This document shows, piece after piece, positions 3,365 to 59,286 of a DNA stretch of 64,000 nucleotides. The first letter of the stretch is position 1; the number at the start of each line of letters is the position of its first letter. The stretch is from Candidatus Poribacteria bacterium (GTDB lineage Bacteria > Poribacteria > WGA-4E > PCPOR2b). The DNA lies in NCBI GenBank assembly GCA_965208325.1, contig OZ242326.1, positions 4,448,001 through 4,512,000 on the forward strand, in the 5' to 3' direction. The translations under genes and the position numbers were made by a program. The notes beneath the pieces were generated by a model. That model saw nothing but the letters and a program-made list of their open reading frames with translations. It searched no databases and was not told the DNA's origin.

Positions 3365-4127
3365 TTTCTAGTTGCCTCCTTTTGCTTTGCGTAGTTGGTA
3401 GATGGCTAGCTAACATCTATTTGGATTCATAAGGAATTGTGCAAATGATTGTGAGGAGTAACGCAATAGGATTTACCGCCCATTACGGAGATGCGGCGGA
3501 TTTTCAACCCTTGTGAAATATGAAATTGGCTAAATTTAGTTGCTGCCCAATCCTTTAAAATCGGTATTCCGAAAAATGATGGTTCGCATGTATTTATAAC
3601 ACAGAACCGAAAAATAAGCAATCCAAAACGGGAACGTTAAATTTTAGGAATCTTAGAAAATTTACAAGAAACCTGGCGGTACAGTGCCAGTCTTTATATT
3701 TGGAATCGCCACGTTAAGATCTCATTTGGACGATAAATCGGTTTCTCATTTTAACACACGATTATTTGGGCGGTCAAGCGGCAACCGCGGCGAGATTCTA
3801 ACGGAAAAATGGGATTGAAATTGGTGTTCTTTATTGCTAGAATAATTTCAATTGAACGTTTTAAACGACATTAGTATGTAGTGTTTTTACGGAGAACCCC
3901 GTTTCCTTAACGGTGGATTTAATGAAGCGGGACTTTTGTAGTAACCAACGCGGGGCAAGCGGAAAACTATCGCCTTCCCTATTCGGTCAGTTGATCCCCG
4001 CCTACGATGGGTGGAGGATTTCCCGCCTACAATGGGGGCATCGGCTGAACATGCGGGTCGACACCTAACGAATCGGGAAAATTCAATCTGAAGTGCTAAG
4101 CCCTAAAAATTATGAAGGATTAGAAGC

Positions 4128-5177
4128 GTGCCTATAAAGTCACATGAAGAATTGAGTGAAATCGGATCGCGGTTACTGAGGTCTGCAGGTGCGACCGACG
4201 ACGTTGCGGACAGAGTTGCGCGCCACCTTGTCGGATCCAACTTAGTGGGCCTGGATTCCCACGGAATCATCCGTCTAGCTGATTATGCCACCTGGTTACA
4301 GGAGGGGAAGATTGCCGGCGACAACCGTATTGAAGTCGTCAGGGACAAAGCCGCAACTTGTTTAATTGACGCCCACATGTCGTTCGGTCAGGTCGCGGCA
4401 TCGCAATCTGCGGACATCGCGGTACAAAAAGCACAGGTGTACGGAATCGGCTTGGTTTCGGTGAAGAATGCTTCCCACATCGGACGACTGGGAGAATATG
4501 TTGAGGATATAGCGTTGCAGGGATTTATCGGTTTTCTCTGTTGCAACGCGGAAGGAGCGGGTCAACTAGTCGCCCCGTGGGGCGGCAAGGACGCGCGAAT
4601 CGGTACGAATCCAATGGCGTGGGGGATTCCCAGCGGCAGGGCGTCAGGAGGCATGGTATTGGACATGGCTACCAGCATCGTTCCCGAAGGCAAGATTCGT
4701 GTCATGATGCGGAGGGAGGAGGAGATTCCGCATGGCTGGGTGCTTGATTCGCAAGGGCAATCGACGACGAACCCGGCAGACCTTTATGGGCCGCCAGTCG
4801 GTGCGATTCTTCCGTTCGGCGGACACAAGGGTTACGGATTAATGTTGGCGATAGAAGCACTTTCGGGTGTATTGAGCGGCGGCGGGCACGCTCGACCTGC
4901 AGTAGCGGATGCTTGGTTTACGCATGGCAGCACGTTTACAATGATGGCGATCGAAGTTGAATCTTTTCGTTCGCTAACCGAGTTTACGGACGACGTCGAT
5001 GAAATGATATACCACATGAAGAGTTCACCGTCGACCACGCCCGATGCTGAAGTGCTCGTTCCTTACGAGATAGAGTCCAGAGAGAAATCGGTAAGGTTAG
5101 CAAACGGGATAATGATAGAGGATTCCACTTGGGATAGGGTGGTTCAGATTGCTAGCGGGCTTGGGATTTCCATTTAA
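4128..5177 (+). CDS. Ldh_2 family (malate/L-lactate/ureidoglycolate-type) oxidoreductase
   Basis: GLDSHG, HIGRLG, GTNP, LDMATS, GGHKGYGL motifs. Confidence 0.9.
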   Translation: MPIKSHEELSEIGSRLLRSAGATDDVADRVARHLVGSNLVGLDSHGIIRLADYATWLQEGKIAGDNRIEVVRDKAATCLIDAHMSFGQVAASQSADIAVQKAQVYGIGLVSVKNASHIGRLGEYVEDIALQGFIGFLCCNAEGAGQLVAPWGGKDARIGTNPMAWGIPSGRASGGMVLDMATSIVPEGKIRVMMRREEEIPHGWVLDSQGQSTTNPADLYGPPVGAILPFGGHKGYGLMLAIEALSGVLSGGGHARPAVADAWFTHGSTFTMMAIEVESFRSLTEFTDDVDEMIYHMKSSPSTTPDAEVLVPYEIESREKSVRLANGIMIEDSTWDRVVQIASGLGISI

Positions 5178-5188
5178 TATCGACTCTA

Positions 5189-5431
5189 CTAGGGCGTGTT
5201 GACATTTGTGTAAATCCCTCCGTAACCGTAGGGGATCAACCGAGTGAATAGCGAGGGCGATAGTGTTTATCAGGTCACCCCGCCCACAAATCAACCGCTG
5301 GGCGGGAAACTCCTAACCATACAGAAATGATTGAGAAAAGAGGGTTGGGTAACCCAACCCCTACGAATCGTATCGGGGTGTGCACTGCCCCCATGATTGT
5401 TCAGTTGTGATGAAATGTCAACAAAACCTAA
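5189..5431. mobile_element. MITE-like element family A, copy 1
   Basis: Ends CTAGGGCGTGTTGACATTT...AAATGTCAACAAAACCTAA; near-identical to 19745-19985; internal GTAG hairpins. Confidence 0.7.
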
Positions 5432-5442
5432 TACCATTTCTA

Positions 5443-6035
5443 TATATTGGCAGTGCATTAATTGCGTCAATCGAGTCTTTCCAAAGCGGGGCAAGATGCC
5501 CCGCCTACGGGTTCAGTATATTGTCAGTGCATTGATATCGTGAATCGAGTCTTTCCAAAGCGGGGCAAGATACCCCGCCTACGGGGTTCGGTATATTGTC
5601 AGTTCATTAATAGCATCAATCGAGTCTTTCCAAAGCGGGGCAAGATGCCCCGCCTACGGGGTTCGGTATATTGTCAGTTCATTAATAGCATCAATCGAGT
5701 CTTTCCAAAGCGGGGCAAGATGCCCCGCCTACGGGGTATGGTATATTGTCAGTTCATTAATAGCATCAATCGAGTCTTTCCAAAGCGGGGCAAGATGCCC
5801 CGCCTACGGGGTTCGGAATATTGTCAGTTCATTAATAGCATCAATCGAGTCTTTCCAAAGCGGGGCAAGATGCCCCGCCTACGGGGTTCGGTATATTGTC
5901 AGTTCATTAATAGCATCAATCGAGTCTTTCCAAAGCGGGGCAAGATGCCCCGCCTACGGGGTATGGTATATTGTCAGTGCAATAATAGCGTCAATCAAGT
6001 CTTTCCAAAGCGGGCAAGATGCCCTGCTTACGGGG
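5443..6035. repeat. Tandem array, 8 x 75 bp, each unit carrying hairpin GCGGGGCAAGATGCCCCGC-CTAC
   Basis: Hairpin starts at 5486, 5560, 5635, 5710, 5785, 5860, 5935, 6010. Confidence 0.97.
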
Positions 6036-6269
6036 TTTGGTGGAAAGTGGAACAGTTAGTATGCGTCGCGTCATAGTAGTATAATAGAAAACACGATATG
6101 CACTATTATTCAAGCGAAATGGTATTACTACTTTCCGGCGGCGAGGGTCCCATTGAAAAACAGACATGAGAACGCAGACGAAGAACAACGTATCCTTCCA
6201 GTGGACGGTTCTCGCCAATAGCCTATCCGCTAATCTCGTACGATCGCCGATTAGGTAATCAGCGATTGG

Positions 6270-7085
6270 CTAGCGCAGCAAAAATCCAGATTTTCGAATT
6301 TCCATCGGTTTTTTCCCCGCATGGTATTCGGATTTCTGTCCGCACAACCAATAGAACATCTCCGCGGCGTCGTTTATGGTTCGATGGTGTTCACGGTGAA
6401 ATTTTAGACCGGGCGGAGAGGACTTTGCATGACTCACCTCGAACTTCGGTTGCTGAATCCAGTCTCGCGTTGGCGGCACTGTCCTCGAATACTCATACTT
6501 CAGTAGGTTGCGAGTCCCGCTCGCAGTGGAGGCGGTGCGGCGGTGCCAAATGCCCCAAATTGTGATGAATATTGAGCCTGCAGGTGCGGCTGTGGACACT
6601 GCGCCACGGATTTTCTTGTAATGCTGCATATGGGCTTGAGAGCAAAAGAGGCAGTGGGATCCAGGCAACACTTCAGTTGGCCCCATCTCCAAGGGTGCGT
6701 CTTGGGGGTAGTAGAACACCTGAAGCATGTCGAACTCGGGACCGTATACGGCGGCACCATCGCCGCCGCTGTCGATATGCCAGCCGCCCACAGGTGCAGG
6801 ACATTCTACACGATGGTTGTTCATCCCGCCCGGCAGACGGAACTCCTTACCTAGAAGTGATCGAATCGCGCCAACTGCTTTTGGGCAACAAATAACATCC
6901 TCAAAAAACCATCTCTCTTGAAGAATTTCGCTCGGCGTATCCGAAGGATATTCGTCGAGAAACGCGAACGCCCGCCGATTCACACCGTCGGGGACAACAC
7001 CCTTCAGCAACAGGAAACCCTTTTTGCAGAAGTCTAGAACCTGCGTGTCGTTCAAGGTGGGTTCGCAGTCATAGGTGTTCTTCAT
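6270..7085 (-). CDS. PhyH family dioxygenase (paralogue of 137-973)
   Basis: PTLNDTQVLDFCKKG, WHID, LQVFY, MGPTEVLPGSH, WHR shared with first copy. Confidence 0.85.
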   Translation of the reverse strand: MKNTYDCEPTLNDTQVLDFCKKGFLLLKGVVPDGVNRRAFAFLDEYPSDTPSEILQERWFFEDVICCPKAVGAIRSLLGKEFRLPGGMNNHRVECPAPVGGWHIDSGGDGAAVYGPEFDMLQVFYYPQDAPLEMGPTEVLPGSHCLFCSQAHMQHYKKIRGAVSTAAPAGSIFITIWGIWHRRTASTASGTRNLLKYEYSRTVPPTRDWIQQPKFEVSHAKSSPPGLKFHREHHRTINDAAEMFYWLCGQKSEYHAGKKPMEIRKSGFLLR

Positions 7086-7771
7086 AGCGTTACGCTCAAA
7101 TGCTCGCCCATTGATCGCTATATCATGTGCACAAAAATATTTTTAGGCGTTTCAATCTGACCAAATCGATGAAGTTTTACACTTGACGCCTAATTCGCCG
7201 CTTACCAATGTAAAGTTGACCTTACTCGTAAAGTTATAAAGCAAAAACGCAGATTGTAAGTTTCCTACCGCCAATTCGATGTCACAAAATATCACACCAT
7301 GTCACATTTTGTGAGGTTGAATGTGACATGCGGTTTGACAGGTACAAAACCTGTGTTAGTCCGCTTGCCATGCGGTTTTTGCTAGTCATTTAGAATGTCG
7401 ATGGCTTACTTTAATGTCACACTATGTCACATTTTGTGATGTGATGCGCCACCCATGATTGAGCTGTGAATAGGTGGCTGAGGTCCGCTTACCATGCGGG
7501 TTTTGGGGGTAACGAGTTCTGCCGAAACTTGGTACGATGTCACAAAACCTCACAAAATATCACATATTTTGGCTTTTTGTCTAATTGGGTAAAGCACGTT
7601 ACATAATTTTTTTTTGCAAAAAAAAGGCGCACCATTTCCTTTGAAGTCGTCGGTCTCCCTCCAATAGAATATAGCACGCCGTGAAGTTGTATTATATCAA
7701 AACGGGTTAAGGTTGTCAAGGGAATTTTCGCTGCCGCGTACGCGGCTTCCCGCGCAATCTTCGCCGCAAGC

Positions 7772-7878
7772 TGTCTGAATCAGGATTTGCAGGATTAAAG
7801 GATTTACAGGAACGATGTTGTCTACTAGGAGTCGTAATTCTGAAAATTTTAGCGTCATGAGAATTCAGATTCAGATAA
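7772..7878. repeat. Imperfect inverted repeat with internal AGGATTTNC-type 9-mers
   Basis: TGTCTGAATCAGGATT ... AATTCAGATTCAGATA. Confidence 0.55.
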
Positions 7879-8269
7879 TTTACCTTCAGTTTAAAGCCCC
7901 AGGTCACTGCTAAACAAAGGATGCTAACGTGCAAAAGCCGCCTTCTTTTTTGGATTGTTTCAAAAAGGTGATGGGCGGATTGTGCAACTATCTCCTATGG
8001 CGCGCACGGTTGGTGCAAGATTCCCTAAAAAAGCCATGCAAACGCGTTGATTCTGTAACAATGAGAGGGCATTTTACCGCAGATGTAACAGAGGGTAGGT
8101 TTTGCGGCATTGGGTTGGGGATTTATTGTCGATGAAATACTGGTCATGAGGTTATCACCGTTGGCAACTACATGCTCAGCAGTTGCCGACAGATTGGCGT
8201 TTGATATAGCCATCGCAATCTGGGGAACCCCATGTTTATGGTCTATGCTGAAATTTTCCCATATTATTC

Positions 8270-8317
8270 TTGACAGGCCTAATCATGATGTGCTAATATA
8301 ATCGCATGTTGTGCTAA
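8270..8317 (+). promoter_or_regulatory. Putative promoter/operator of the BlaI-M56 operon
   Basis: TTGACA at 8270-8275, two GTGCTAA motifs, imperfect palindrome TGCTAATATAATCGCA. Confidence 0.4.
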
Positions 8318-8332
8318 AAAGGAGGTGATAAC

Positions 8333-19161: not shown

Positions 19162-19691
19162 GAGCCAGTTTGAATAATACGTTACAAAGCCATTGTTGGG
19201 CGTTTGAGTTGCTATAACGGGTGGAAATTCTATGGCGCGGGATTTGCTACCGCGTTCGCTATTCATTCGGTTGATGCTATTCGGTTGCATGATTTCACCA
19301 AATGCATTACTCGAGCATTTTGCGGGGCAAGATGCCCCGCCTACGGCGGGTAGAGGAGCCTGCGGGCAAGATGCCCCGCCTACAAGGTGTGGCGGTACAC
19401 GCGGGGCAAGTGAAATCTCAATCGCGCGGGATTTGTAATCGCCTTCGCGATTCGCTTAGTTGAAACTATTTGGTCGCTTGGTTTCACGAAATACGTTACT
19501 CCAGCGTTGTGCGGGGCAAGATGCCCCGCCTACGGCGGGTAAAGGTGCCTGCGGGCAAGATGCCCCGCCTACAAGGTGTGGAGGTATACGCGAGGCAAGT
19601 AAGATCTCCAACGCACTCCTTATTCAGTCGCTTGATTCCCGCCTACGGCGCGAGGTGGTGTCCCATATAATATGAATTTTCAAACAGGTTA
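19162..19691. mobile_element. MITE-like element family B, copy 1, with internal ~189 bp duplication and REP hairpins
   Basis: GAGCCAGTTTGAA...TTCAAACAGGTTA; left portion homologous to 31133-31508. Confidence 0.7.
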
Positions 19692-19744: not shown

Positions 19745-19985
19745 CTAGGGCGTGTTGACATTTGTGTGAATCCCTCCGTAACCGTAGGGGATCAACCGAG
19801 TGAATAGCGAGGGCGATAGTGTTTATCAGGTCGCCCCGCCCACAAATCGACCGCTGGCAGGAGACTCCCAACCATACAGATATGTTTGGGAATAGAGGGT
19901 TGGGTAACCCAACCCCTACGAATCGTCTTGGGCTGCGCACTGCCCCATGATTGTTTAGTTGTGATGAATTATCAACAGAACCTAG
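19745..19985. mobile_element. MITE-like element family A, copy 2
   Basis: CTAG-flanked, GGCGTGTTGACA...TATCAACAGAACC; near-identical to 5189-5431. Confidence 0.75.
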
Positions 19986-20014
19986 AGCGACAGATTTTAA
20001 TGCATCAATCGGAT

Positions 20015-21426: not shown

Positions 21427-21579
21427 GAGTGAAGAGTGATGAGTAATGAGTAATGAGTAAGGCGTAAAGAGTGAAGAGTGAAGAGTGAAGAGTAATGAGT
21501 AAAGCGTAATGAGTAAAGCGTAATGAGTAAAGCGTAATGAGTAATGCGTAATGAGTAAAGAGTAAAGCGTAAGGGGTGA
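21427..21579. repeat. Degenerate heptamer tandem repeat (GAGTAAT/GAGTGAA/GCGTAAT), ~22 units
   Basis: Fills almost the whole gap between the kinase and regulator genes. Confidence 0.95.
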
Positions 21580-31132: not shown

Positions 31133-31508
31133 GAGCTTGTTTGAATTTATGGGTGACAAAGCCATTCTTGGACGTTTGAGTTGCAACAACCGGTGGAACT
31201 TCTTTGCCGCGGAATATACTATCGCCTTCGTTGTTTGCTCAGTTTTTTCTATTCGGTTGCTTGAGTCCCTCCTACGAGTTGCGGCGGCACGCGCTGGGCA
31301 AGGAAGATTTCTATCGCACTCCTTATTCAGTCGCTTGATCCCCTCCTACAGCGCGTGGCGGTACACGCGGGGCAAGGAAGATTTCTATCGCACTCCTTAT
31401 TCAGTCGCTTGATCCCCTCCTACAGGGCGTGGCGGTACACGCGGGGCAAGGAAGCGCCGCCTACAGCGCGTGGCAGCGCACTCCATAAATGAATTTTCAA
31501 ACAGGTTC
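31133..31508. mobile_element. MITE-like element family B, copy 2, flanked by TAA; contains 74 bp tandem units
   Basis: TAA-GAGCTTGTTTGAA...TTCAAACAGGTTC-TAA. Confidence 0.72.
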
Positions 31509-33172: not shown

Positions 33173-34222
33173 TTACGCCGCCACATGAATATGGGCATGC
33201 GACGAATCGGTGACGCGTCCAATTACAGCCGCTTCCGGGCAATCTCGCTCATGCAACACTGCCAGCGCCGAATCTGCATCAGCCTCTGGCAATGCAAAAA
33301 GCAACCCGCCGGAGGTTTCCGCTTCCATCAAAATATGGCGCATTTCCTCCGAGACGCCCGAATCAAAAGTTACCATCTGATCGAGGAATTTCGTATTCGA
33401 TTTGTAAGCTCGGGTTTGAATTTTCTTCTTCACGAGCATGGGGGCTTCGTCGAAGTAGGGGACACTCTTGGAAAAGATTTCCAGTGTGACGCCGTTGCCG
33501 CTTGCCATCTCTGAGCTGTGTCCAAGCAGACCGTATCCAGTTACATCCGTACAGGCATTTACGCTGAATTTCTGCATAACATCTGATGCAGACCGGTTCA
33601 AACGAGTCATTGATTCTACGACTTGCGGCAAGGCACTTTTACCGAGTTTATTGAATTTTAATCCCGTCGTGAGAATGCCGACACCGAGCCGTTTTGTAAG
33701 AATCAGAACATCGCCGGGTCTTGCACCAAAATTCCTTACTACCCGCTCTGGGTGGATTATGCCGGTTACTGCCAATCCATACATCAACTCGGGGGCATCA
33801 ACCGTATGTCCGCCAACAAGTACGGCGCCTGATTCCTTAACTTTATCCGCACCGCCCCTCATGATGTCACCGAGAATTTCCAGGTCCAACCGGTCTTTGG
33901 GCCAGTATAGAACATTGAGCGCGGTTTTGGGGATGCCGCCCATGCTATAGACATCGCTCAACGCATTCGTTGCGGCGATTTGTCCGAATGTGTATGGGTC
34001 ATCAACGATAGGCGTAAAATAGTCGGTGGTATTGATAATTGCAAGATCTTCGGTGAGTTTATAGACGCCTGCATCGTCCGATGTCTCTGTACCGACAAGC
34101 AAATTCGGGTCGTCCATCTCTGGTAGATTATGCAGGACTTGCGCAAGATCCCCCGGATCCAGTTTGGATGCTCACCCAGCGCATTTGACGGTTTTTGTCA
34201 ATTGGACCTTTTTCTTCGTCAT
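33173..34222 (-). CDS. selD: Selenide, water dikinase, selenocysteine-containing (UGA at codon 17)
   Basis: ATG 34222 with AGGAG RBS reads MTKKKVQLTKTVKCAG-UGA-ASKLDPGDL, in frame with DDAGVY, N.LSD.Y.MG, GGHT, DVTGYGLLGH, TSGGLL. Confidence 0.93.
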
Positions 34223-34243
34223 TGTGTGTTATGCTCCTTTTTG

Positions 34244-35096
34244 CGATTTTTCGTCACGCGTGCGCGGCAAGATGCCGCGCCTACGGTGGGTGCGGTTAAG
34301 GCAATTGAACGATAAGGTGTTGTAATACGATTTTTCGTCACGGGTGCGCGGCAAGATGTCCCGCCTACGGTGGGTGCGGTTAAGGCAGTTGAACGATAAG
34401 GTGTTGCAATACGATTTTTCGTCACGGGTGCGCGGCAAGATGCCGCGCCTACGGTGTGTGCGGTTAAGGCAGTTGAACGATAAGGTGTTGTAATACGATT
34501 TTTCGTCACGGGTGCGCGGCAAGATGCCGCGCCTACGGTGTGTGCGGTTAAGGCAGTTGAACGATAAGGTGTTGTAATACGATTTTTCGTCACGGGTGCG
34601 CGGCAAGATGCCGCGCCTACGGTGTGTGCGGTTAAGGCAATTGAACGATAAGGTGTTGTAATACGATTTTTCATCACGAGTGCGGGATAAGATGTCCCGC
34701 CTACGGTGTGTGCGGTTAAGGCAATTGAACGATAAGGTGTTGTAATACGATTTTTCGTCACGGGTGCGCGGCAAGATGCCGCGCCTACGGTGTGTGCGGT
34801 TAAGGCAATTGAACGATAAGGTGTTGTAATACGATTTTTCGTCACGGGTGCGCGGCAAGATGCCGCGCCTACGGTGTGTGCGGTTAAGGCAATTGAACGA
34901 TAAGGTGTTGTAATACGATTTTTCATCACGAGTGCGGGATAAGATGTCCCGCCTACGATGGGTGTGGTTAAGGCAGTTGAACGATAAGGTGTTGTAATAC
35001 GATTTTTCGTCACGGGTGCGCGGCTAATGCAGTTGAACGATAAGATGTTGTAATACGATTTTTCATCACGGGTGCGCGGCAAGATGCCGCGCCTAC
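34244..35096. repeat. Tandem array of 84 bp units (10 hairpin-bearing units plus one with a 28 nt deletion)
   Basis: Hairpin GCGCGGCAAGATGCCGCGC-CTAC every 84 nt from 34262 to 34934, truncated unit at 35018, last at 35074. Confidence 0.97.
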
Positions 35097-37237: not shown

Positions 37238-39655
37238 TCAGCTACGAAGTTCCGCATCTAACTCGTCTTCCAGTGTTTTTACAATTCTGTCATGAACCTG
37301 ATCCACAATTTCATCAGTCAGGGTTTGCGTGTTGGAGTGGTATTCGATGGCATAAGCCAGGCTTTTCTTTCCTTCGGGAACTTGCTCGCCTGTGTACAAA
37401 TCAAACAGGCGGATAGAATTAACGTATTTGCCGGCGGCGGACTTAATCACGCTGGTCGGGCGGCTGGAAGGAATGTCCGCATCAAGCACTATTGCAAGAT
37501 CTCGATTGACGCTGGGATAGATTGAAATCGGCTGAAATTCGTTATTCAGATTGGAGGCTTCAACGAGTTCCTCGAAATCGAGTTCGAACAGATAGGCTTT
37601 ATTGGGCAAATCGTAGCGCTCAATTATGTCGGGGTGGATTTCACCCAAAACACAAATTTTCTGCCCGCCTACACGTATTTCTGCGCTGCGTCCGGGATGG
37701 AAGGCGGGGTGTTCGGCTTGAACGATAGTCTCACCGGAAACGCCGCAAACTTCCAGCATGCCCTCGACAATCCCCTTGATGTCGAAGAAGTCCGCCGGGC
37801 GCTGCAGATCGGCGTATACGCCGGTACCGAGGCTGCCAGTAACAATGCCAGCCACACGTTCCAATTCATTCGGATATTCTCCACTCGTTTCGACACTCTC
37901 GGCGGGATCGCTCGGCATGAAAACTTGGGCAATTTCAAAAAGTTGCACATCGATCACCTGATGGTTTGCGTTCCGCTGCGCATTCTCCAGCAAACTGGGA
38001 ATCAGCGTTGTTCGCATGGTTGAGAAATCTTCCACGAGCGGATTTCGAATCTGAAGCGCACCCCGAAGCGGATCGTCAGCGTCTAGCCGTATGCGGTCGA
38101 AAACGTCCGGATGGTAGAACGAGTAATTTATTGCTTCCATCATGCCGCAGTCAAGGAGGTAGGTTTTCACCTGCTGCCGCAGCATCGATTTCGGATCGAC
38201 ACTTGATGTCGGAAGGTTGCCTTGCGGCAGCGCGATTGGGATATTGTCATAACCGTAAACACGAGCGATCTCTTCGATTAGGTCGATTTCTCGGTCTACA
38301 TCGGGACGGAACGTCGGCACTGTGACTTCGAAACCACCGGACACAGTAAAACCGAGACGAGTGAGTATCTCACGCATCAGGTTTGGCGTAATTTCTGTAC
38401 CCAGAACGAAATTGACACGTTCCGGGCGCAACTTAATCCGATTAGGCGTTCGTACACCGGGGTAAACATCAATGATTCCTGCACCGACTTCACCTCCGGC
38501 AATCTCGGCGATAAGTTGTGCTGCTCGATTAATGGCGGGAATAACACCTTCTGGATCAACGCCGCGTTCGAATCGATGGGAAGCTTCGGTGTGCATGCCT
38601 AAATTTTTTGAGGTTTTGCGGATGCTTGTCGGATGAAAATACGCACTTTCGAGCAGGACATCAACCGTCTGCCCGGTAATTTCCGAATCGAAACCGCCCA
38701 TCACCCCGGCGAGCGCCACGGGTTTCTCGGCATCCGCAATAACAAGCATGTCAGAAGTGAGGTTGCGTTCCTCTTCATCGAGCGTCTTTAAGATTTCGCC
38801 GGCTTTTACGCGGCGAACGACGATTCTGTTTTCGCCAAGCCGATGAAAATCAAAAGCGTGCAGCGGCTGCCCAAATTCCATTAAGGCGAAGTTCGTAATA
38901 TCTACGACGTTGTTAATTGGCGCCATGCCAACGGCTTCAAGCCGGCGCTGCAACCAGGTTGGAGAGGGAGCAATTTTAACCCCCCGAATCAGCCGCGCCG
39001 CGTAACGCGGACAAAGATCCGGCGCATCTATTGTGACCGAGGTAAAATCCCGAATGTTCGCGGCGGATTCTTGCACTATGGATTGCGGCGTTTTCAGCGA
39101 ATTGCTTGTTATGACGCTAATTTCCCGTGCAACACCTATCATACTCAGGCAGTCCGGACGATTGGGTGTAATTTCAAGCTCCATCATAACATCGTCCAAA
39201 CCCAGCGCTTCCACGAGCGGCGTTCCTGCCTTTAGATTGTCCGAGAGCTCCATCAGACCTGACGCTTCATCCGATACATTTAACTCACTTTCAGAGCAGA
39301 GCATTCCGTGTGATGGCTCGCCTCGGATGTTCGCAGATTCGACTGTCACCCCGCTCGGCAATTCTGCCCCGACCAAAGCGACAGGTGCGACCAATCCCGC
39401 GCGCGCGTTAGGCGCGCCGCAAACGATTTGTAGGTCTGCGTCCGATCCAACATCGACATCGCATAAAACGAGATTATTCGCCCCCACGTGCTCCCTGACT
39501 GCGTTAATCCTGCCGACCGTGACTCGGTCCAGCCCTTCTCCGAGCCGCTTAACGGATTCGACTTCAATGCCGAGCATCATCAAACGGTCGGCGAGTTCTT
39601 CTGGGGAAAGGTCGAAATCAACGTATTCCTTTAGCCATTTCACGCTTACGTTCAT
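37238..39655 (-). CDS. pheT: Phenylalanine-tRNA ligase beta subunit
   Basis: IVCGAPN, TPNRPDCLS, GQPLHAFD, RFERG, DLIEEIAR, C-terminal anticodon-binding domain. Confidence 0.98.
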   Translation of the reverse strand: MNVSVKWLKEYVDFDLSPEELADRLMMLGIEVESVKRLGEGLDRVTVGRINAVREHVGANNLVLCDVDVGSDADLQIVCGAPNARAGLVAPVALVGAELPSGVTVESANIRGEPSHGMLCSESELNVSDEASGLMELSDNLKAGTPLVEALGLDDVMMELEITPNRPDCLSMIGVAREISVITSNSLKTPQSIVQESAANIRDFTSVTIDAPDLCPRYAARLIRGVKIAPSPTWLQRRLEAVGMAPINNVVDITNFALMEFGQPLHAFDFHRLGENRIVVRRVKAGEILKTLDEEERNLTSDMLVIADAEKPVALAGVMGGFDSEITGQTVDVLLESAYFHPTSIRKTSKNLGMHTEASHRFERGVDPEGVIPAINRAAQLIAEIAGGEVGAGIIDVYPGVRTPNRIKLRPERVNFVLGTEITPNLMREILTRLGFTVSGGFEVTVPTFRPDVDREIDLIEEIARVYGYDNIPIALPQGNLPTSSVDPKSMLRQQVKTYLLDCGMMEAINYSFYHPDVFDRIRLDADDPLRGALQIRNPLVEDFSTMRTTLIPSLLENAQRNANHQVIDVQLFEIAQVFMPSDPAESVETSGEYPNELERVAGIVTGSLGTGVYADLQRPADFFDIKGIVEGMLEVCGVSGETIVQAEHPAFHPGRSAEIRVGGQKICVLGEIHPDIIERYDLPNKAYLFELDFEELVEASNLNNEFQPISIYPSVNRDLAIVLDADIPSSRPTSVIKSAAGKYVNSIRLFDLYTGEQVPEGKKSLAYAIEYHSNTQTLTDEIVDQVHDRIVKTLEDELDAELRS

Positions 39656-40002
39656 TTTCTAACATTGCTCCGTAGAGTGGCTTATAACCAAATGTGTTTA
39701 TAACCCCCTCTAACTCCCCCTTGGTATGGGGGAGGATTGGTATTCCGTCACCGTATGGGATCAACCGGGTGAATAGCGAGGGCGATAGTGTTTATCAGGT
39801 CATCCCGCCGATTCACGAATCGCGGATACAGGAAGCCCAAGCATCCAAATATTGATTCATTGCACAATTATGTGGGAGCGTCCTCCCGGACGCGATAATC
39901 TCTAAATATCGAGGCAAGGATGCCTCTCCCACAGTGAAAATTTTGGCAACCGTCAAACGGCGAATTGCGGCAAGCCAAAGATTTTTCCGTCCCCGCCTAA
40001 GA

Positions 40003-41019
40003 TTAAAACTGACGGAGGAACCGCATGTCATTTTCGAATAGCAGCCGTAAGTCTGGGATGCCAAAACGCAGCATCGCGATGCGGTCTACCCCCATGCCAA
40101 ATGCAAAGCCGGTGACTTGATTCGGATCGTAATTTACGTAGCTGAACACGTTTGGATCGACAGATCCGGCGCCCAAGATTTCGAGCCAACCCGTCCATGA
40201 ACAGGTGCGGCAACCCTTGCCGCCGCAAACCGTGCAGGAGATATCGACTTCGGCGCTCGGCTCTGTGAAAGGGAAGAAGTGGGGACGAAAACGCACACGT
40301 GTTCCTTCTCCAAACATCTGCCGCGCAAAGGAATGGAGTACGCCTTTCAGCTCGCTGAAGGTGACGCGGTAATCAACCAGCAACCCTTCAACTTGGTGGA
40401 ACATCGGCGTATGCGATATATCGTAATCGCGCCGGTATGCCTTACCCGGCACAATGATGCGCACGGGCGGCTGCTGTTTTTCCATGACCCGCACCTGAAC
40501 CGGCGAGGTATGGGTGCGCAGCAATAGGCTATCCGTGATATAGAGGGTATCGTGAAGATCCCGCGCTGGATGGTCTTGGGGTGTGTTCAGCGCATCAAAA
40601 TTGTAATATTCGTGCTCAATCTCCGGACCTTCCGCGACTTGGAATCCCATACCGAGAAAGATTTCCTGAATCCGTTCGAGCGACTGCGTTACCGGGTGTT
40701 TTTTGCCGATTGTTGGACGCCGCCCGGGTAGCGTGATGTCTATCGTTTCCAGAGCAAGCTTTTGTTGGCGTTCTTGGCGGGAAAGCGCTTCGGCAAGCTG
40801 ATCAAAAGCCTCCGTAAGCCGTGTTCTCACTGTATTTGCGTGCTTGCCGACGATTGGACGCTCTTCTTTGGAGAGTGCCCCCATGCCTTTCATCAATGCG
40901 GTGAACGCGCCTTTGCGGCCAAAATACCTAATCCGCAGCGACTCAAGCTCAGCTAAATTATCTACGTTTTTCAGGCTTGCAAGCGCATCAGCCTCAATTT
41001 GATTCAACTGCTCCTGCAT
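40003..41019 (-). CDS. pheS: Phenylalanine-tRNA ligase alpha subunit
   Basis: HPARD.HDT, LRTHTSPVQ, FHQVEG, FPFTEPS, GFAFGMG; start ATG 41019 behind GGAG. Confidence 0.98.
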   Translation of the reverse strand: MQEQLNQIEADALASLKNVDNLAELESLRIRYFGRKGAFTALMKGMGALSKEERPIVGKHANTVRTRLTEAFDQLAEALSRQERQQKLALETIDITLPGRRPTIGKKHPVTQSLERIQEIFLGMGFQVAEGPEIEHEYYNFDALNTPQDHPARDLHDTLYITDSLLLRTHTSPVQVRVMEKQQPPVRIIVPGKAYRRDYDISHTPMFHQVEGLLVDYRVTFSELKGVLHSFARQMFGEGTRVRFRPHFFPFTEPSAEVDISCTVCGGKGCRTCSWTGWLEILGAGSVDPNVFSYVNYDPNQVTGFAFGMGVDRIAMLRFGIPDLRLLFENDMRFLRQF

Positions 41020-41032
41020 GCTTTCTCCAGCC

Positions 41033-41324
41033 AACAAAAAAACGCCTGTCACTTTAGCCCATTAGGGACGAAAGCAACAGGCGTCAACTTCCGCGGTACC
41101 ACCCTAGTTGACAGAATAAATATCTGCCCTCTTCATTGGTCGAATCAATAACGGTGAAACCCCCGGCACAAACCTACTTGTCCTCCGCACATTGGGGTTG
41201 GACGTTCAGCTTGGCAGCTCCAAGATGAAATTCGGCGGTTGGTTCCAAAGATGCGCTTTCAGCCAGTGGCGCTTCCTCTCTGATTGGAAGATTCCAACCG
41301 CTTACTTTGTCCCTTCATCGCCTT
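41033..41324 (-). promoter_or_regulatory. T-box riboswitch with Phe specifier and terminator
   Basis: Minus strand: AGTA, AGAGAG and GCTGAA stem I motifs, GAAT-TTC-A specifier (41229-41227), T-box AACTAGGGTGGTACCGCG, ACGCCTGT..ACAGGCGT plus U-run. Confidence 0.9.
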
Positions 41325-41367
41325 TAAATTACCGTATTCAGTTATTGTTTAAGGGGAAATTCTGAAT

Positions 41368-44439: not shown

Positions 44440-44930
44440 GACCCATCGTAGGCGGGGCATCTTGCCCCGCATTGGCAGTTATCTGTTCAACCCAACCTAT
44501 AATAAAAACTATTTTGAGCGTTTCGACATTTGGTGCCGTCAATTCGATAAACGCTGTAAGAATTGGGCATACCGACAACACCTGAAATTATATACCTGTC
44601 GCCCCGCTGGGGCGTGATAGTGGTGAGATTCGGCGTTTCTATACACCTGCCGCCCCGTTGGGGCTGAATAGGTTTTGTAGGTTGGGTTGAGCGACTAATC
44701 GCAAAATCGTTTCGGTGTCCGTACCTCGTCCAATTTCCGCTGCGATGACGTTGAAGAAAATGCAAAGCGATCAAGCGACTGAATAAGGAGTGCGATAGTT
44801 TTCCTGTAGCTCAACCCAACGCTTTTTGGTTTTATCGAGGAGTCACGTCTTTGGTAGATGTGTGAATTATCCTAAGAGCGTTGCCTTGGAGCCCCAGCGG
44901 GGATCTTCAAGCGTATGTAGCAATGTATAG
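44440..44930. repeat. Cluster of REP-like hairpins
   Basis: GTAGGCGGGGCATCTTGCCCCGC (44448), GCCCCGYTGGGGC x2, GTAGGTTGGGTTGAGCG..CTCAACCCAAC, GCCCCAGCGGGG. Confidence 0.75.
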
Positions 44931-46001: not shown

Positions 46002-46132
46002 CAAGTTCTTGTAGGATCAACCGGCTGAATAAGGAGTGCGATAATTTTCCTGAATAGTCTTCACAAGTTTTGTAGGTAAGGAGATTCGGTTCGGCGAATT
46101 GGAATGATAACGCTGCCGATAATTCAGGTTTT

Positions 46133-46171: not shown

Positions 46172-46784
46172 CAGCGTAAAATCAGGAAAGAAACGCAATG
46201 GAAAATGGGTAATTTCCGGTCGAGCCGATGTTGGTGGTTACCTTTTATTGAATTGCACCGGCCCGCTTGTGGTGCGGGTTCATTGAAATCGTGAGGTAAC
46301 CAAAAGGTAACCAAGAAAAAAGATCTGTGAGTCTTTTGAGGGGATTGAAATGCTAATATTTTAGCATAGTTTATAGGGGTGATTTAAAACATTCACTGGC
46401 AGTGAATCGGAAAGAATTTTATCGCAATCGAGAGGCGAAATGGGCGGGAATTTAGCCAGGAACCAATTATCAGTCAATGCGAACGCACAAACGCTAAAGG
46501 GCGCTGTGAAAATTCATCCCCGCGTGAAGGGCGGCGGATTACCCTAAGAATTTGCGGAAACGAGGGAATTTCAACCTCGCGCCATGTGGGTTGATTTTAA
46601 CGGCCGAACAAAGCACAATCAAGCGAGCGAATAGCCGGCGCGATAGTCTTCCCAAGTTAAATCCTCCGCCTTGAGAAAACTTACAATTGCCCGCAAGTCC
46701 GCAAATTCGGGGAGCGTACGGGTTTTCTCCCTTCATTCTTGACGTAACCATGCTGTAAAACACCTGTGGGAAGGGCTTCCTAGC

Positions 46785-47085
46785 CCTGATTATCGGGACA
46801 GGGATGTCCCTCCCACAGTATTTGTAGGTTGGGTTGAGCGAACCACTGACCGAACAGCGAAGGATCAAGCGACTGAACAAGGAGTGCGATAGTTCTGCTA
46901 TAGTCTTCTGCGTAACCCAACGTATTTTGGTCATTGGAAAGTGTTTGGTATATCCGAACTGCTTCCGAGCAATGAAAAAGCGTTGGGTTACGCTCCATGT
47001 GATGAGCCAAGGGCGTCGGTTGGTGTATTGAACGGTTATTGGCATAGGAACGGATTTGGGATTACCCGCTTAACCCAACCTACAA
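46785..47085. repeat. REP-like cluster downstream of glnS
   Basis: GGGACAGGGATGTCCCTCCCAC, GTAGGTTGGGTTGAGCG ... CTTAACCCAACCTAC inverted pair. Confidence 0.7.
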
Positions 47086-49009: not shown

Positions 49010-49168
49010 AGGACTTACGCGATAAGTTCATAAGTCCCCCTGATAAGGGATCAAGCGACTGAATAAGGAGCGCGATAGTATTCCTATAGTCTCAGGGGGT
49101 TGAAAACACTGCAATAACGACTATTTAAGTCCAATAGTTCCTTTTTCTGCTCAATTTGCGTAAGTCCT
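49010..49168. mobile_element. MITE-like element family C, copy 1
   Basis: AGGACTTACGC...GCGTAAGTCCT terminal inverted repeat. Confidence 0.65.
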
Positions 49169-50722: not shown

Positions 50723-51089
50723 ATATAATCACTCTCCCATGCTATTATATCACGGTTACGAAAAAGTTGACAGATTAAACATGGGATATTTTAGCGCGGC
50801 GATAGTAAGGAGGAGAAAGAATGTCCGTTGGATCGATTGAAGATGGGGCGAGTGGGTTGTCGAAACTCAAGGTACAAGCACTAGGAAGAACCATAAAAAC
50901 TATCGTCTTTGCTATCCACTCAGTTGATCCGCCTTGGTGAGGAGGGGAATTTTATTCATCCGCAACTCTGATGTTGGTGTGGAAAAGTTGGAACTTAGAG
51001 AAGAAGTTGGACCGTGCCTGGATGGATTTGATTCGATATGTCTTGAATCTATATGTTCAGCAAGTTATTATAATTACTTAACTTTTTTT

Positions 51090-54930: not shown

Positions 54931-55106
54931 CAGTTTGACCGGACGCCTAGCTAACCTTTATTCATGGGGCAAAACCTTGTGCTATATGGTGAAGTTTTCC
55001 GTAAAATACCCAAAGACGTACCCGCCAATTTCCGTGTGATAAACCGCTTTAACGATGACATCCAACCTCAAGAAGATGCCAGGAAATGCGATGATAGGTG
55101 TGAACC

Positions 55107-55856: not shown

Positions 55857-56227
55857 AAGAGATTCAAAGGACTTGAAAACATAGCCGCCGGAACGAAAGT
55901 CAAAATATCACCTTCCTCCGCATACGCACAGACCACGCCGTATTTGACTACCGACCCGCCTTACGCCCAATCGACGCCGGACAGCAGTTGAGTTTTACCT
56001 GAACGCAACCTCCACCGTACGAAACTGCACGAAATCGTTCACGAGAAATGCAATCTTGCACTATTTGGGGCAGTTACAGCGGGAGTTAACGAAGCGTCGA
56101 ATTGGCTGAAAGACGCTACCCGCTTGAATTTTCGAATTGTAGCGCTCTGGCATACAAATTGCGTGTTTCCTGCCTGAAATTCACACAGTCGGATGGAGAT
56201 TTTCGGAAAGGAAGGCGAGCGCCCGCA

Positions 56228-57040
56228 ATGAAGTTGCCCACGATTTCGATTGGACCGCACCGTGTCAGCAAGTTGATTATTGGCGGCAATCCGTACAGCG
56301 GGATTTCACACCATTCCCCTGCGAAATCGAAAGAGATGGAGAATTATTACACTTCCGCGCAGATCATGCGGGATTTACGGGAGGCGGAGCGGTGCGGAAT
56401 TAACACCGTGCTTGCCCGTGCGGACCGGCATATCATGCGGGTATTAAATGAATACCGCGGTGCAGGCGGAAAGATTCAGTGGATTGCGCAGACGGCGAAG
56501 CGAAACGAATACGCGGATCTCATGGATCATATTCGTCTAATTGCGCGTTATCAACCGATAGCTATCTATCAGCACGGCGGAACGACCGATCAGTTCTACG
56601 ACGAAGGAAAGCTCGAATCTCTGCGCGACGCTTTGGCGCTAATTCGAGAACTGGGCTTTGCGGCAGGTATCGGAACTCATGACCCGCGCATACTGAAGCA
56701 TTGTTACCACGAAGGATTCGATGTCGATTTCTACGTCTGCGCACTTTACAATCACACGCGCCGTCCAGAAATGTACCTGCCAGCTGATCGAGATGCTGCA
56801 ATTGCGGCGATTCAGGCGGTGCATCTGCCGGTGATTGCCATCAAAGTGCTCGCCGCCGGGCGCACCGAACCGGTTCCTGCGTTCCGATTTACGCTCGACC
56901 GCATCAAGCCGATTGATGCCATTGCGGTTGGCATGGATACGAATGGGCGACCGGAGCTCATCAACGATAACGTGACATTGGCCGGTAAAATGATTAATCC
57001 TATCGACTCACCAAGGACAGATGAAAGGAGTACATCGTGA
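56228..57040 (+). CDS. Conserved protein, aldo/keto-reductase-like fold
   Basis: VSKLIIGGNP.SG.SH, IKVLAAGR; start moved to ATG 56228. Confidence 0.6.
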   Translation: MKLPTISIGPHRVSKLIIGGNPYSGISHHSPAKSKEMENYYTSAQIMRDLREAERCGINTVLARADRHIMRVLNEYRGAGGKIQWIAQTAKRNEYADLMDHIRLIARYQPIAIYQHGGTTDQFYDEGKLESLRDALALIRELGFAAGIGTHDPRILKHCYHEGFDVDFYVCALYNHTRRPEMYLPADRDAAIAAIQAVHLPVIAIKVLAAGRTEPVPAFRFTLDRIKPIDAIAVGMDTNGRPELINDNVTLAGKMINPIDSPRTDERSTS

Positions 57041-57657
57041 TACAGTATTTGCCGCGCTTTTTTTGCATGTTGATGTGTGTGTTATTGAGCGGCTGCGGCA
57101 TAATTTTGCCGCAATCTGACTACATCTGGAGTGAGAACTACGCGCTGGACAAAAATGGCGGACGCAGTTCTATCCCAGAAGTAAACGACGGGAATTTGGA
57201 AACGTTTGGGCGGCTCGGAGTAAAAGCTGTAGGAACACTCAATAGGGCAAGGAGCAGAGACACGGCAACTCAGTCACCCCTGGAGTTAAGAACGTTCGGC
57301 AGAAGCTACTCATTTGCGGAAGCCGAGGTTTTCCCGCAGGTCAACATTCAATTCCGAGAAAAGTTGCCGATTGACAAAATTATCATCCACGGGACGAATG
57401 TCTACACTTTGGATGTCTATTGGCGAGATGATGAATCCAAATGGCAGCAATTGGCGGGCCTTCGTCAAAACCCCAAAAATCCCATCGTCATCCGTGAACA
57501 CGCCGTAACCGATGCCATACTTATTGATGTGAGACCTCGAAAGCCGGTTCCGTCAAGGCAGTCGATGTACCGATCACTCGAATTTGCACTTGAAGCTGAA
57601 GCGCACATAGCAGAGATTGAAATTTACGGGAAGATGCCCAAGAAGGCGAGTTTATAA
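57037..57657 (+). CDS. Putative lipoprotein with discoidin/galactose-binding-like domain
   Basis: Lipobox LLSGC, NYAL, NDGN.ET, IAEIEIYG; AAGGAG RBS. Confidence 0.65.
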   Translation: MIQYLPRFFCMLMCVLLSGCGIILPQSDYIWSENYALDKNGGRSSIPEVNDGNLETFGRLGVKAVGTLNRARSRDTATQSPLELRTFGRSYSFAEAEVFPQVNIQFREKLPIDKIIIHGTNVYTLDVYWRDDESKWQQLAGLRQNPKNPIVIREHAVTDAILIDVRPRKPVPSRQSMYRSLEFALEAEAHIAEIEIYGKMPKKASL

Positions 57658-57782
57658 GGGGACGTGGTTTCTGTGAAGCTGCTTCTAGCTTGTAGAACCT
57701 CTCGCTTCAGCATAAGGAGCATGAAACCCATTAAAAACTCGGTTTCAAGGGCAATTTGAAGCATCCGATGTATTAAAGACGT

Positions 57783-58712
57783 TTAAGGTTTTACCGGTAG
57801 ATTTTTGAACACTTTGAAATTATCGAATTTTGTGCCTTTGTACGATGTACCTCCCTTTATTGTCCAGACGCCCGCTTTCCCACTTTCATAGCGTTCAGGG
57901 GTGTGGTCGGATGCTTCCAACAACCATGTGCCCGGTTCGGATTCGCCTTTCGGCCAGACTTTGGCCTTCAAATAGGTGTAGGCATCGTGGGTCGTAACCT
58001 CAAACTGAAAAATGTACCAACGGTTATCTTTGAGGTGTAGGTCTATTTCGTTCAGATAAATATTTCCGTACCTGCCCTGCTCAATGGGAACGCGTTTGGC
58101 AATTTGGAGTTTTTTGTGAACATCGGACGTTCGAAGCCTGTAATTCTCGAGGGAGGAGTTCCAGTAGGCGAACACACCGGCATCGCCGGAGTGATCAATG
58201 CGGAGTTCCGCCTGAACGACGTAACTGGCCCAATCCTTTTCCCCAACAAGCGCGGCGCTATTTGGCGCGTTTCTGTTCGACTGTTCCAATACACGGCTGC
58301 CCGAGGTAGAAATGCCCCATCTTCCGCCGGAAGGGAAATTCCATTCCTTCTGATCCTCTACACTTGTCTTGCTTTCGAAGTTGTCCTCAAACAGTGTTTC
58401 GCGGCGAATCCCGCGTAGTTGAGACAGTTTCTTTTCGAGCGTATTGACCCTCGCTTCAAGTTTTTCCTTTTGCTGAACTTTTATCAGTAACTGCGTTTTC
58501 TCGGGGATGACTATCTTTTGTTCCGCCTTAATTACGTCAGGATTAGAGATGCTGTTATACTTGGCGAGTTGCGGCCATAACGAGACATCCTGTAGATTTT
58601 CTTTAGCTATTTTCTCAAGCGTATCGCCCTTTTGGACGGTGTAGAGATTTTCCTCTGCTATCACAATATTACAGCACAGTGTAACCATTAAAACCACGCC
58701 AAGAAACTTCAT
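57783..58712 (-). CDS. Secreted LysM protein with ConA-like/DUF1080-like domain
   Basis: Signal peptide, YTVQKGDTL..IA..W..L..YN.I.NPD.I LysM, C-domain shared with 11174-11935. Confidence 0.85.
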   Translation of the reverse strand: MKFLGVVLMVTLCCNIVIAEENLYTVQKGDTLEKIAKENLQDVSLWPQLAKYNSISNPDVIKAEQKIVIPEKTQLLIKVQQKEKLEARVNTLEKKLSQLRGIRRETLFEDNFESKTSVEDQKEWNFPSGGRWGISTSGSRVLEQSNRNAPNSAALVGEKDWASYVVQAELRIDHSGDAGVFAYWNSSLENYRLRTSDVHKKLQIAKRVPIEQGRYGNIYLNEIDLHLKDNRWYIFQFEVTTHDAYTYLKAKVWPKGESEPGTWLLEASDHTPERYESGKAGVWTIKGGTSYKGTKFDNFKVFKNLPVKP

Positions 58713-58911
58713 GATTTAGTCTCCTATTGAGTTCATGAGTTGTTCGTGCGGACGAGAGAAATCGAGATTTCGAGACAAAACCCGGGTACGCCGCTAAAGG
58801 AACGTTGAAATTGTACCCGATTGAGCGGGGAAAGGGCAAACCAGAAATGAAACAATCGACATGAATCGAAACCGCGATTTGAAAAAGTTCGTTTTGGCAG
58901 AGGCGGACGCT

Positions 58912-59286
58912 TTTATGCGGGGCAAGGAAAATCTCTATCGCACTCCCTATTCAGTTGATTAATCCCCGCCTACGGAGAGAGCGAAAGGGGGGGAAGATTC
59001 GGTGCCTACGGATGAAGGGTATGGAACAACTTTATTTTCCCCCAATGTTTAGACAGTGATGTGTGTCTATAAACGGGTGATTTTGTGCGGGGGTAGTAAG
59101 TTTTCAGACAGTGGTTTCGGCACACGGAGTGTGCCTACTACTTTATGCGGGGCAAGGAAGAACTCTATCGCACTCCCTATTCAGTTGCTTGATCCCCGCC
59201 TACGGAGAGAGCGAAAGGGGGGGAAGATTCGGTGCCTACGGAAGAAGGGAATGGAACAACTTTACTTACCCCCAATGTTTAGAGAG
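58912..59286. repeat. Two ~145 bp direct repeats (58912-59056, 59142-59286), each a module-filled REP
   Basis: 230 nt offset; extra hairpin CGGCACACGGAGTGTGCCTACTAC between them. Confidence 0.9.

Follow-up and report, generated by a model that had tools for sequence, protein, structure and literature searches.

The locus and its repeats

The stretch of DNA analysed here (hereafter the window) comprises 64,000 nucleotides (nt) of a Candidatus Poribacteria metagenome-assembled genome (MAG) of 4.71 Mb in one contig (G000), at G000:C1:4448001-4512000. Its intergenic regions carry a short dispersed module, several copies of which lie in the loops of repetitive extragenic palindromic (REP) repeats. 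We searched for the module with the pattern ATCAA-N6-GAATAR-N6-CGATAG, allowing up to 2 mismatches unless stated otherwise. The window contains 16 matches, compared with a mean of 0.03 in 100 dinucleotide shuffles, none of which reached 16. Genome-wide, the pattern occurs 136, 220 and 282 times at 0, 1 and 2 mismatches, respectively, and the reversed genome, which served as a control, contains no match. Because of these two contrasts, 16 against 0.03 in the window and 282 against 0 in the reversed genome, we consider the module to be real and non-random. A covariance model built from module copies and run on the window with its filters off recovered the identical 16 full copies and a partial copy at 19439-19463 on the minus strand (E 0.0025).

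The initial annotation of the window had claimed at least 15 intergenic copies, and the pattern search recovered all 15 of their starts; those on the minus strand are offset by 7-8 nt because the annotation had included the tail of the module. Three additional copies that it had called degenerate fared unequally. The one at 19241 is complete, with 1 mismatch (19247-19275), and the one at 19430 is the partial copy, but the one at 31218 has no covariance match at E<=1, and only a 5' half is visible at approximately 31250-31266.

A 36-nt copy at 3960-3995 (minus strand, 61.1 bits) lies in the loop of a REP of the form GTAGGCGGGG..CTTGCCCCGC, and two 37-nt copies at 58927-58963 and 59157-59193 (both minus) occupy the REP loops of the first and second 230-nt units. 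The unfilled form of this host, GTAGGCGGGG-CAT-CTTGCCCCGC, is present without mismatches at 44448-44470 (plus), which confirms the annotated correspondence of this empty REP to hosts filled by 37 nt at 58917 and 59147 and by 36 nt at 3950. A copy with 2 box mismatches at 19600-19636 (minus) is also in a REP loop, and those at 31303-31339 and 31377-31413 (both minus; the latter 65.6 bits) are in the REPs of adjoining 74-nt tandem units, the first of which has the form GTAGGAGGGG..CTTGCCC. Other copies occur in hosts that resemble miniature inverted-repeat transposable elements (MITEs), namely, at 5235-5271 (plus, 37 nt, between CCGTAGGGG and AGGTCACCCCGCCC), at 19791-19827 (plus, in a host of the same family) and at 39760-39796 (plus, after CCGTATGGG). 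The copy at 44770-44806 (plus) is beside a hairpin repeat of the GTTGGGTT..AACCCAAC type, the copy at 50892-50928 (minus) is directly 3' of a CCCCTCCT..AAGGCGG hairpin, and the copy at 49050-49091 (plus) lies inside a hairpin between CCCCCTGATAAGGG and CAGGGGG, where 42 nt replace 4. Two copies are nested: the one at 19239-19275 (minus, 1 box mismatch, 35.7 bits) after the loop of another copy, and the one at 46864-46897 (plus) in an older copy after its position 22, with CTATAGTCTTC as the outer remainder. The remaining full copies are at 46016-46052 (plus, after TTGTAGG) and 46618-46654 (plus, 43.2 bits), and the partial degenerate copy at 19439-19463 (17.9 bits, model positions 14-38) is in the second of the 189-nt units. 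The tail ends are approximate for the copies at 44770, 46016 and 46618 and for that at 19239-19275, where the tail was taken as the core plus 8 nt.

The window contains 18 REP units at up to 2 mismatches, including the empty unit at 44448-44470, and they are mostly in arrays. Tandem arrays of REP-containing units extend over 5443-6041 (75 nt x 8.0) and 34244-35024 (84 nt x 9.3). The open reading frames (ORFs) that overlie these arrays, of 204 aa (5462-6076) and 287 aa (34219-35082), have weak Pfam matches only and are probably spurious genes.

Host repeats, junctions and nesting

According to the initial annotation, the module has a constant length, and the same host occurs in filled and empty forms. 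The length of 37 nt is indeed typical in several unrelated hairpin repeats, with one orientation, and the two forms are borne out by the REP loop counts and by paralogous host copies. A regular expression for the REP identified 91 units in the genome. A loop of 3 nt occurs in 60 of these units (57 times as CAT). Loops of 37 nt were found in 7 units and one of 38 nt in a single unit, and 4 units contain two nested modules in a loop of 72 nt; in the remaining 19 matches, the loop measures 42-116 nt, and most of these matches span at least two adjacent REP units. In every filled REP found by this genome-wide search, ATCAA adjoins the GTAG arm, that is, the module points in the same direction as the GTAG of its host, as had been proposed. 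The plain REP GTAGGCGGGGCATCTTGCCCCGC of this genome shows a strong strand bias of its own, with 24 forward and 189 reverse occurrences.

The MITE-like family, in which CG lies between CCTGTAATCGTAGGGG and AGGTTACCTCGCCC, has 21 matches, comprising 10 empty, 7 singly filled and 2 doubly filled copies and 2 others, one of which (+2687945) is derived by deletion between two ATCAA repeats and the other of which has diverged. The best pairs match exactly over 47 nt to the left and over more than 70 nt to the right, and they differ solely in having CG or 37 nt between these flanks. A strict search for empty sites with exact flanks of 10 + 10 nt succeeded for only 3 of the 282 copies. A looser search among paralogues was used instead, and it identified an empty counterpart for 33 of the 282 copies, with a net gain of mostly 33-36 nt.

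In most host families, the module replaces 1-4 nt starting with C, often CG, CGA or CGAT, and its 5' edge at ATCAA and the 37-nt fill are constant in at least 10 unrelated contexts. The 5' junction had been described as mostly GG/ATCAA (the slash marks the junction); in agreement with this description, G is present at -1 in 216 and at -2 in 174 of the 282 copies. The left contexts include AACCCAACG (35 copies), the GTAG-type REP (24), CCTCCTT..AAGGAGG (21), the MITE-like family (17) and the GTTGGGTT loop (14), and one module replaces the outer end of the terminal repeat of a CRISPR array at a G/CGG step. No target-site duplication was found in the filled/empty pairs, one case having an ambiguous GGG.

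The module also interrupts itself. Numbering its positions from the A of ATCAA as 0, 39 copies lie after position 22 and 28 lie after the loop of another copy, for a total of 67 of 282. These positions coincide exactly with the two internal G/CGA steps of the module, of which G22/C23G24A25 is always present and G16/C17G18A19 is present in some subfamilies. Thus, the module carries its own G/CGA target steps, which would explain why a quarter of the copies are nested in another copy.

Covariation and the hairpin

Conservation among the 282 copies in G000 spans positions -2 to about +33 and then decreases to background on both sides. The layout is a 29-nt core followed by a T/C-rich tail of 6-8 nt, mostly TCTTC in this genome, so that the unit is approximately 35-37 nt long. 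Each letter of ATCAA, which forms the 5' flank of the hairpin described below, is conserved in 265-281 of the 282 copies. The copies include 185 distinct cores, the commonest of which occur 27, 15, 12, 11, 7 and 6 times.

The initial annotation regarded the two hexamers as variable spacers in a binding site composed of several boxes with a 12-nt period. Neither point can be maintained: the hexamers are largely fixed within a few subfamilies, and they pair with each other. Among all column pairs, the three with the highest mutual information are 6-20, 9-17 and 5-21. In the resulting scheme, x5-x21 and x6-x20 are followed by the tandem non-Watson-Crick pairs G7.A19 and A8.G18, which are nearly invariant, and then by x9-x17 and x10-x16, with G11AATA15 as the closing loop of a hairpin in which 2 bp on each side enclose the interrupting tandem G.A/A.G. 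Outside this stem, A3A4 opposite G22C23 form a 2x2 internal loop, and A0-T26, T1-A25 and C2-G24 are able to pair but are invariant. On this comparative reading, the boxes and their apparent 12-nt period are the loop, the tandem G.A pairs and the flanks of one covarying hairpin.

Covariation was measured on an alignment of 148 distinct copies, of which 14 lie in the window and 134 come from 116 of 137 fetched stretches, all of which, where titles were listed, are Ca. Poribacteria MAGs. The search pattern fixed G7, A8, G18 and A19 and left the covarying positions free. The four variable pairs are paired in 95.1% of cases, with 3-4 pair types each. Changes on both sides occur in 257 cells, compared with 46.8 +/- 5.1 in shuffles (0 of 500 reached 257), and the covariation score is 0.578, compared with 0.004-0.121 when the partners are slid. 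We consider the hairpin pairing of the module to be established by this covariation among the sequences. G.T wobbles occur in 33 and 39 of the 148 copies; these would be A.C mismatches on the opposite strand, which places the fold on the ATCAA strand. GGGATC/GATCCC, an alternative outer stem that was tested as a terminal inverted repeat, is paired in 64.8% of cells, mostly in copies from a second genus (g11, see below).

The initial annotation had not recognized the module as a named element, and no Rfam family matched it. At the gathering score, only a T-box and a tRNA were identified in the window, and at E<=5, four module-rich loci yielded one chance-level match, which was outside the modules.

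Distribution and relatives

A scan of the genome and its relatives had been proposed as a check, and it revealed, beyond the 282 copies in G000, that the module is abundant in two genera only. With one genome per species, at least 137 stretches carry the module, and all 80 listed are from Candidatus Poribacteria MAGs. A cyanobacterial origin of the DNA was rejected on the basis of these titles, a count of only 83 for HIP1 and the presence of a T-box. With up to 1 mismatch allowed, copies were counted in each of 121 genomes of the phylum, and the control read backwards gave 0-1 matches. The genus of G000 (g1, family f1) has 206-224 copies in 4 of 4 genomes, and genus g11 of family f3 has 561-1263 copies in 8 of 8. 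The remaining 109 genomes, including 14 genomes of genus g5 in f1, have 0-4 matches each, and viral contigs have none. The empty REP is present at 19-93 units per genome in six module-free g5 genomes and at 27-154 in g11. Because the REP occurs in module-free genomes, it is older and more widespread than the module, and the module is separable from its host. Module subfamilies are common to g1 and g11, which, together with the patchy two-genus pattern, suggests that the module may have arrived horizontally.

Orthologous loci were compared with three relatives, of which G002 is the closest (approximately 90-96% identical to G000) and the others are G003 and G001. The REP and module at 3960-3995 are retained in all four genomes, and the copy at 46016 aligns in G002. 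The copy at 50892-50928 has an orthologous module in G002 with nearly identical flanks but with several different stem positions, which suggests local replacement or conversion by another subfamily. At other loci, larger pieces differ. The block at approximately 19190-19690 is absent from all three relatives, the block at approximately 19770-19990 that includes the 19791 copy is absent from G002, and so are the extra 74-nt tandem units of REP and module at 31324-31471. The intergenic region of the 49050 copy has no module in G003 and G001 and has different content in G002. Moreover, a 935-nt segment at 5191-6124, consisting of a module-bearing element and the 75-nt REP array, is unaligned in G002, where positions 5190 and 6125 of the window meet at one point of the alignment. 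The presence/absence comparison that the initial annotation had envisaged thus yielded gains and losses of whole repeat blocks, but no single 37-nt events within the genus, and the filled/empty evidence rests on paralogous host copies. Contigs of four DNA runs begin or end at modules; the 12 of 40 indels and 15 of 176 joints inspected contained no clean indel of 35-37 nt and are uninformative.

Candidate enzymes

Four enzyme families were searched for, namely, Y1_Tnp, RVT_1, the TnpB zinc-ribbon and Cas1. Y1_Tnp is the only transposase-type family among these that was found in G000, where it is represented by 2 genes, which we term RAYT1 and RAYT2 after the REP-associated tyrosine transposases (RAYTs). 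RAYT1 encodes 187 aa with HIH and YYDH motifs and is flanked by plain host REPs, RAYT2 is flanked by an AT-rich hairpin, and no G000 RAYT gene is flanked by modules. In g11, at least one module is present within the 3.3-kb locus of 8 of 8 RAYT genes, where the module density is high anyway, and the five g11 RAYT flanks that were read are module-filled REPs of another type. Co-occurrence of the module with RAYT, Cas1 or reverse transcriptase genes had been suggested, and none of the three was borne out. Y1 transposase genes occur in module-free genera as well and were found in 6 of 6 g5 and 6 of 6 f2 genomes with 0-2 modules. RVT_1 has no match in G000, G002 and G013, and its matches in G026 and G039 are all weak or broken. 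The Cas1 family is present in all five genomes tested, but the ortholog of the G000 Cas1 (>=81% identity) was not found in the module-rich G050 and is present in the module-free G006, G010 and G017. The TnpB zinc-ribbon has 0 matches in the g1 and g11 genomes G000, G002, G026 and G039. It has 26 matches in the g5 genome G013, the reverse of the module distribution. No recurrent gene was found among the genes bracketed by inverted modules in G000.

The CRISPR array of G000 has 41 repeats of 37 nt with a spacing of 71-79 nt, which corresponds to spacers of approximately 35-42 nt, and its repeat is unrelated to the module. This array belongs to a type I CRISPR-Cas locus outside the window, at G000:C1:3305001-3324000, which includes genes for a WYL regulator, cas6, a cas7-like protein, cas3, cas1 and cas4; the RAYT2 gene adjoins cas6 in this locus. 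The Cas1 encoded there (locus positions 7000-8100, minus strand) is 81-84% identical between families f1 and f3, and the single conserved gene region compared between these families has a DNA identity of approximately 72-74%. These sequence identities suggest that the CRISPR-Cas locus may have been exchanged among Poribacteria.

Other features of the window

A T-box leader (102.8 bits, above the gathering score) is present at 41061-41327 on the minus strand, directly upstream of pheS (40003-41052), with pheT (37238-39655) also downstream of it, and indicates T-box control of Phe-tRNA synthetase in a poribacterium. Between the genes for a sigma-54 response regulator and a histidine kinase, the heptamer GAGTAAA is repeated 20.9 times at 21427-21572. 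Two DDE transposase genes or fragments are located at 60067-62250, one of which is IS1595-like (159 aa, partial profile) and the other of which has DDE_Tnp_1 with its associated N-terminal domain.

Interpretation

We believe, with a rough probability of 0.55, that the module is an insertional hairpin element, non-autonomous and very small, that parasitizes REP-type repeats, and we infer its enzyme and mechanism as follows. The module would be a unit of non-coding selfish DNA of approximately 35-37 nt that inserts in place of 1-4 nt at a G/C step, often G/CGA, in or beside hairpin repeats. The places in which it is found are the loops of GTAG-type REPs, the MITE-like element, positions just 3' of two other families of hairpins and the terminal repeat of a CRISPR array. 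The substrate may be single-stranded DNA, and catalysis would be provided in trans by a hairpin-recognizing HUH/Y1 enzyme (RAYT) or by another enzyme. According to PMC3479197, cleavage by the IS200/IS605 enzymes and TnpA-REP is directed by a short sequence that lies 5' of the hairpin foot, and the ATCAA of the module occupies the corresponding place. Lodged copies would then multiply with the host as tandem REP units and whole blocks, and the two-genus distribution would reflect the horizontal arrival of the module itself rather than that of a special enzyme. A stronger form of this interpretation is that the module is a hyperparasitic transposable unit of approximately 35-37 nt, with a hairpin and ATCAA that recruit a host HUH enzyme, a G/CGA target of which it carries copies, nesting in itself and horizontal transfer between two poribacterial families. 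We put this form forward tentatively, as possible rather than probable.

Several observations weigh against the insertional interpretation. The loss of 1-4 target bases, the variation of the 3' end by a few nt and the lack of target duplication are difficult to reconcile with known Y1 transposition, which, as described in PMC3479197, does not lose target bases or vary its end in this manner. In 131 of 282 copies (46%), the junction coincides with the end of a hairpin on its left, compared with 33% of 600 control sites, and the minimum free energy of the flank differs with p = 0.006; this crude test of a hairpin target is only weakly positive. The intergenic DNA of this genome is generally rich in hairpins. 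Nearest-neighbour folding does not predict a stable hairpin (z-scores of -1.6 to +0.9 for six constructs). The support for the hairpin is comparative only, and a protein or non-canonical stacking is probably needed for its stability. Modules are co-oriented with flanking tandem genes at 105:50 (binomial p = 1.2e-5), which a DNA-level element need not be. None of the tested enzyme genes tracks the module: no module lies within 1.4 kb of RAYT1 in G000, 26 of 28 genomes carry Y1_Tnp, those of the module-free genera g5, g8 and g14 among them, and homologues of RAYT1 occur in g4, g5, g8 and g14, module-free genera included. Finally, there is no clean presence/absence of a single module in G001-G003, where the differences are those of blocks or tandem units. 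Without an orthologous gain of a single module, the claim of mobility is weakened, and passive shuffling is supported.

Such shuffling would dispense with dedicated insertion altogether. The module would then be a building block of mosaic repeats similar to bacterial interspersed mosaic elements (BIMEs), amplified with its hosts and moved by template switching, gene conversion or illegitimate recombination at G-runs. The ortholog comparisons, in which only blocks or tandem units are gained or lost, speak for this explanation, and it also accommodates junctions with 1-4 nt lost, the variable 3' end, the G-run microhomology at the left junction (GG in 174 of 282 copies), the copy at +2687945, which a deletion between two ATCAA repeats explains, and the lack of an enzyme that correlates with the module. 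However, it does not readily account for the exact ATCAA edge and the constant 37-nt fill in at least 10 unrelated contexts, for near-identical paralogues in which the module is the sole difference, or for the fixed orientation in REPs. Moreover, the covariation indicates that only variants that keep the hairpin have spread, and passive shuffling needs no such restriction. We regard this explanation as doubtful. The covariation, the strand-specific G.U pairs, the invariant tandem G.A pairs and the GAAUA loop could instead reflect a functional structured RNA or a protein-binding motif, such as a hairpin in an untranslated region, that is selected locally and dispersed on REPs, and the co-orientation with genes (105:50, p = 1.2e-5) is in line with this possibility. 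However, copies with all four pairs intact make up 67 of the 105 that are co-oriented with genes and 36 of the 50 that are opposed to them (Fisher p = 0.37), and convergent and divergent spacers are occupied equally, by 42 and 41 copies, respectively. The latter observation and the 67 of 282 copies that interrupt another copy argue against a locally selected RNA function. The numbers of 200-1200 copies in two genera versus 0-4 in sister genera with the same REPs, and the lack of an Rfam match at the gathering score or at E<=5, are also contrary to it, and such a function appears unlikely. The most plausible reading of the covariation is then that selection acts on propagation, as it does in REPs. 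The module strand is also associated with local GC skew (odds ratio approximately 0.3, p of approximately 1e-5 to 1e-4), an association that carries no conclusion because the cumulative skew is irregular and its sign conflicts with the gene-orientation bias.

Two other explanations invoke a specific enzyme, and both appear very improbable. Ectopic integration by Cas1-Cas2, in which DNA of the size of a spacer is written into hairpins, is suggested by the type I CRISPR spacers of approximately 35-42 nt, which match the module in size, by the presence of Cas1 in G000 and by the one module that abuts a terminal CRISPR repeat. This explanation is disfavoured by the mismatched distribution of the Cas1 ortholog (not found in G050, present in G006, G010 and G017); in addition, there is no target duplication of repeat length beside the module, the insert always belongs to one family rather than to varied spacers, and the CRISPR repeat is unrelated to the module. 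The precise 5' end and the variable T/C-rich 3' tail resemble an RNA copy, as if a small RNA had been reverse transcribed and inserted by a reverse transcriptase in the manner of a short interspersed nuclear element, but the RVT_1 results given above (no match in G000, G002 and G013, weak or broken matches in G026 and G039) speak against such a route.

If the module is a hyperparasitic unit, it would rank among the smallest mobile DNA elements for which a target rule can be defined. REPs are usually seen as the bottom of the hierarchy of mobile elements, and here a smaller structured unit appears to land in them and in itself, with up to three levels of nesting within approximately 100 nt. The 12 module-rich genomes and the more than 100 module-poor relatives that share the REPs and the RAYT families provide a tractable case for studying the movement of tiny elements. 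The modules also have practical consequences: they break short-read assemblies, the REP tandem arrays that frequently host them create spurious ORFs, and they cause a rapid turnover of intergenic regions in these sponge symbionts.

Comparison with known systems

A literature search found no paper that combines Poribacteria with REP, RAYT or intergenic-repeat terms. The module was compared with systems of other bacteria. IS1397 and members of the IS110 family, works on which are cited in PMC3116915, target REP loops and thereby share with the module the use of REP hairpins as insertion sites. They are coding elements of 1.2-1.5 kb, in contrast to the non-coding module of 37 nt. The IS200/IS605 elements and their miniatures, as presented in PMC3479197, resemble the module in their imperfect hairpin, guide-like 5' sequence, strand-specific structure and lack of target duplication. 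Unlike the module, they have a pair of subterminal hairpins, their cleavage tetranucleotides are fixed at both ends, and they insert precisely on the 3' side of a target tetranucleotide. The module has one hairpin, a left neighbour that is no more than G-rich, a varying right end and a loss of 1-4 target bases, and no TnpB match was found in g1 or g11. It also differs from a MITE, in that it lacks a target-site duplication, and from a CRISPR repeat, in that its copies are dispersed or nested and the repeat of the G000 array (37 nt, 41 units) has a different sequence.

REPs and BIMEs with their RAYTs, as described in PMC3479197 and PMC3116915, resemble the module in several respects. They are short intergenic hairpins in hundreds of copies with a mosaic or tandem layout, they show compensatory stem changes between subfamilies, and they have a conserved short sequence 5' of the hairpin foot. 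As in these systems, the genome has Y1 genes, and REPs flank RAYT1. The module is likewise a high-copy palindromic hairpin (282 copies, supported by covariation), although its stem is interrupted and energetically unstable. It departs from REPs in its 5' tag, which is ATCAA rather than GTAG (or CGTC) at the foot, the GTAG belonging to the host REP, in its stem of only 2+2 bp around the tandem G.A pairs, and in its location inside REP loops and inside itself. In addition, the presence of a RAYT does not predict the module.

The small dispersed repeats SDR1-8 of Nostocaceae, attributed to Elhai and colleagues in 2008, are reportedly non-coding repeats of 21-27 nt. They are said to insert into other repeats and into each other in a hairpin context, with no known enzyme. 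Going by this description, the module differs in its length of 35-37 nt, in its occurrence in Poribacteria and in its internal hairpin supported by covariation. PMC5861425 reports no SDR-like repeat outside Nostocaceae. The module behaves like REPs and BIMEs and, going by the description above, like the cyanobacterial SDRs. The present analysis contributes the negative correlations with enzyme genes, the occurrence in a second genus, the pairing scheme, and the G/C(GA) junction rule together with its link to nesting of the module in itself.

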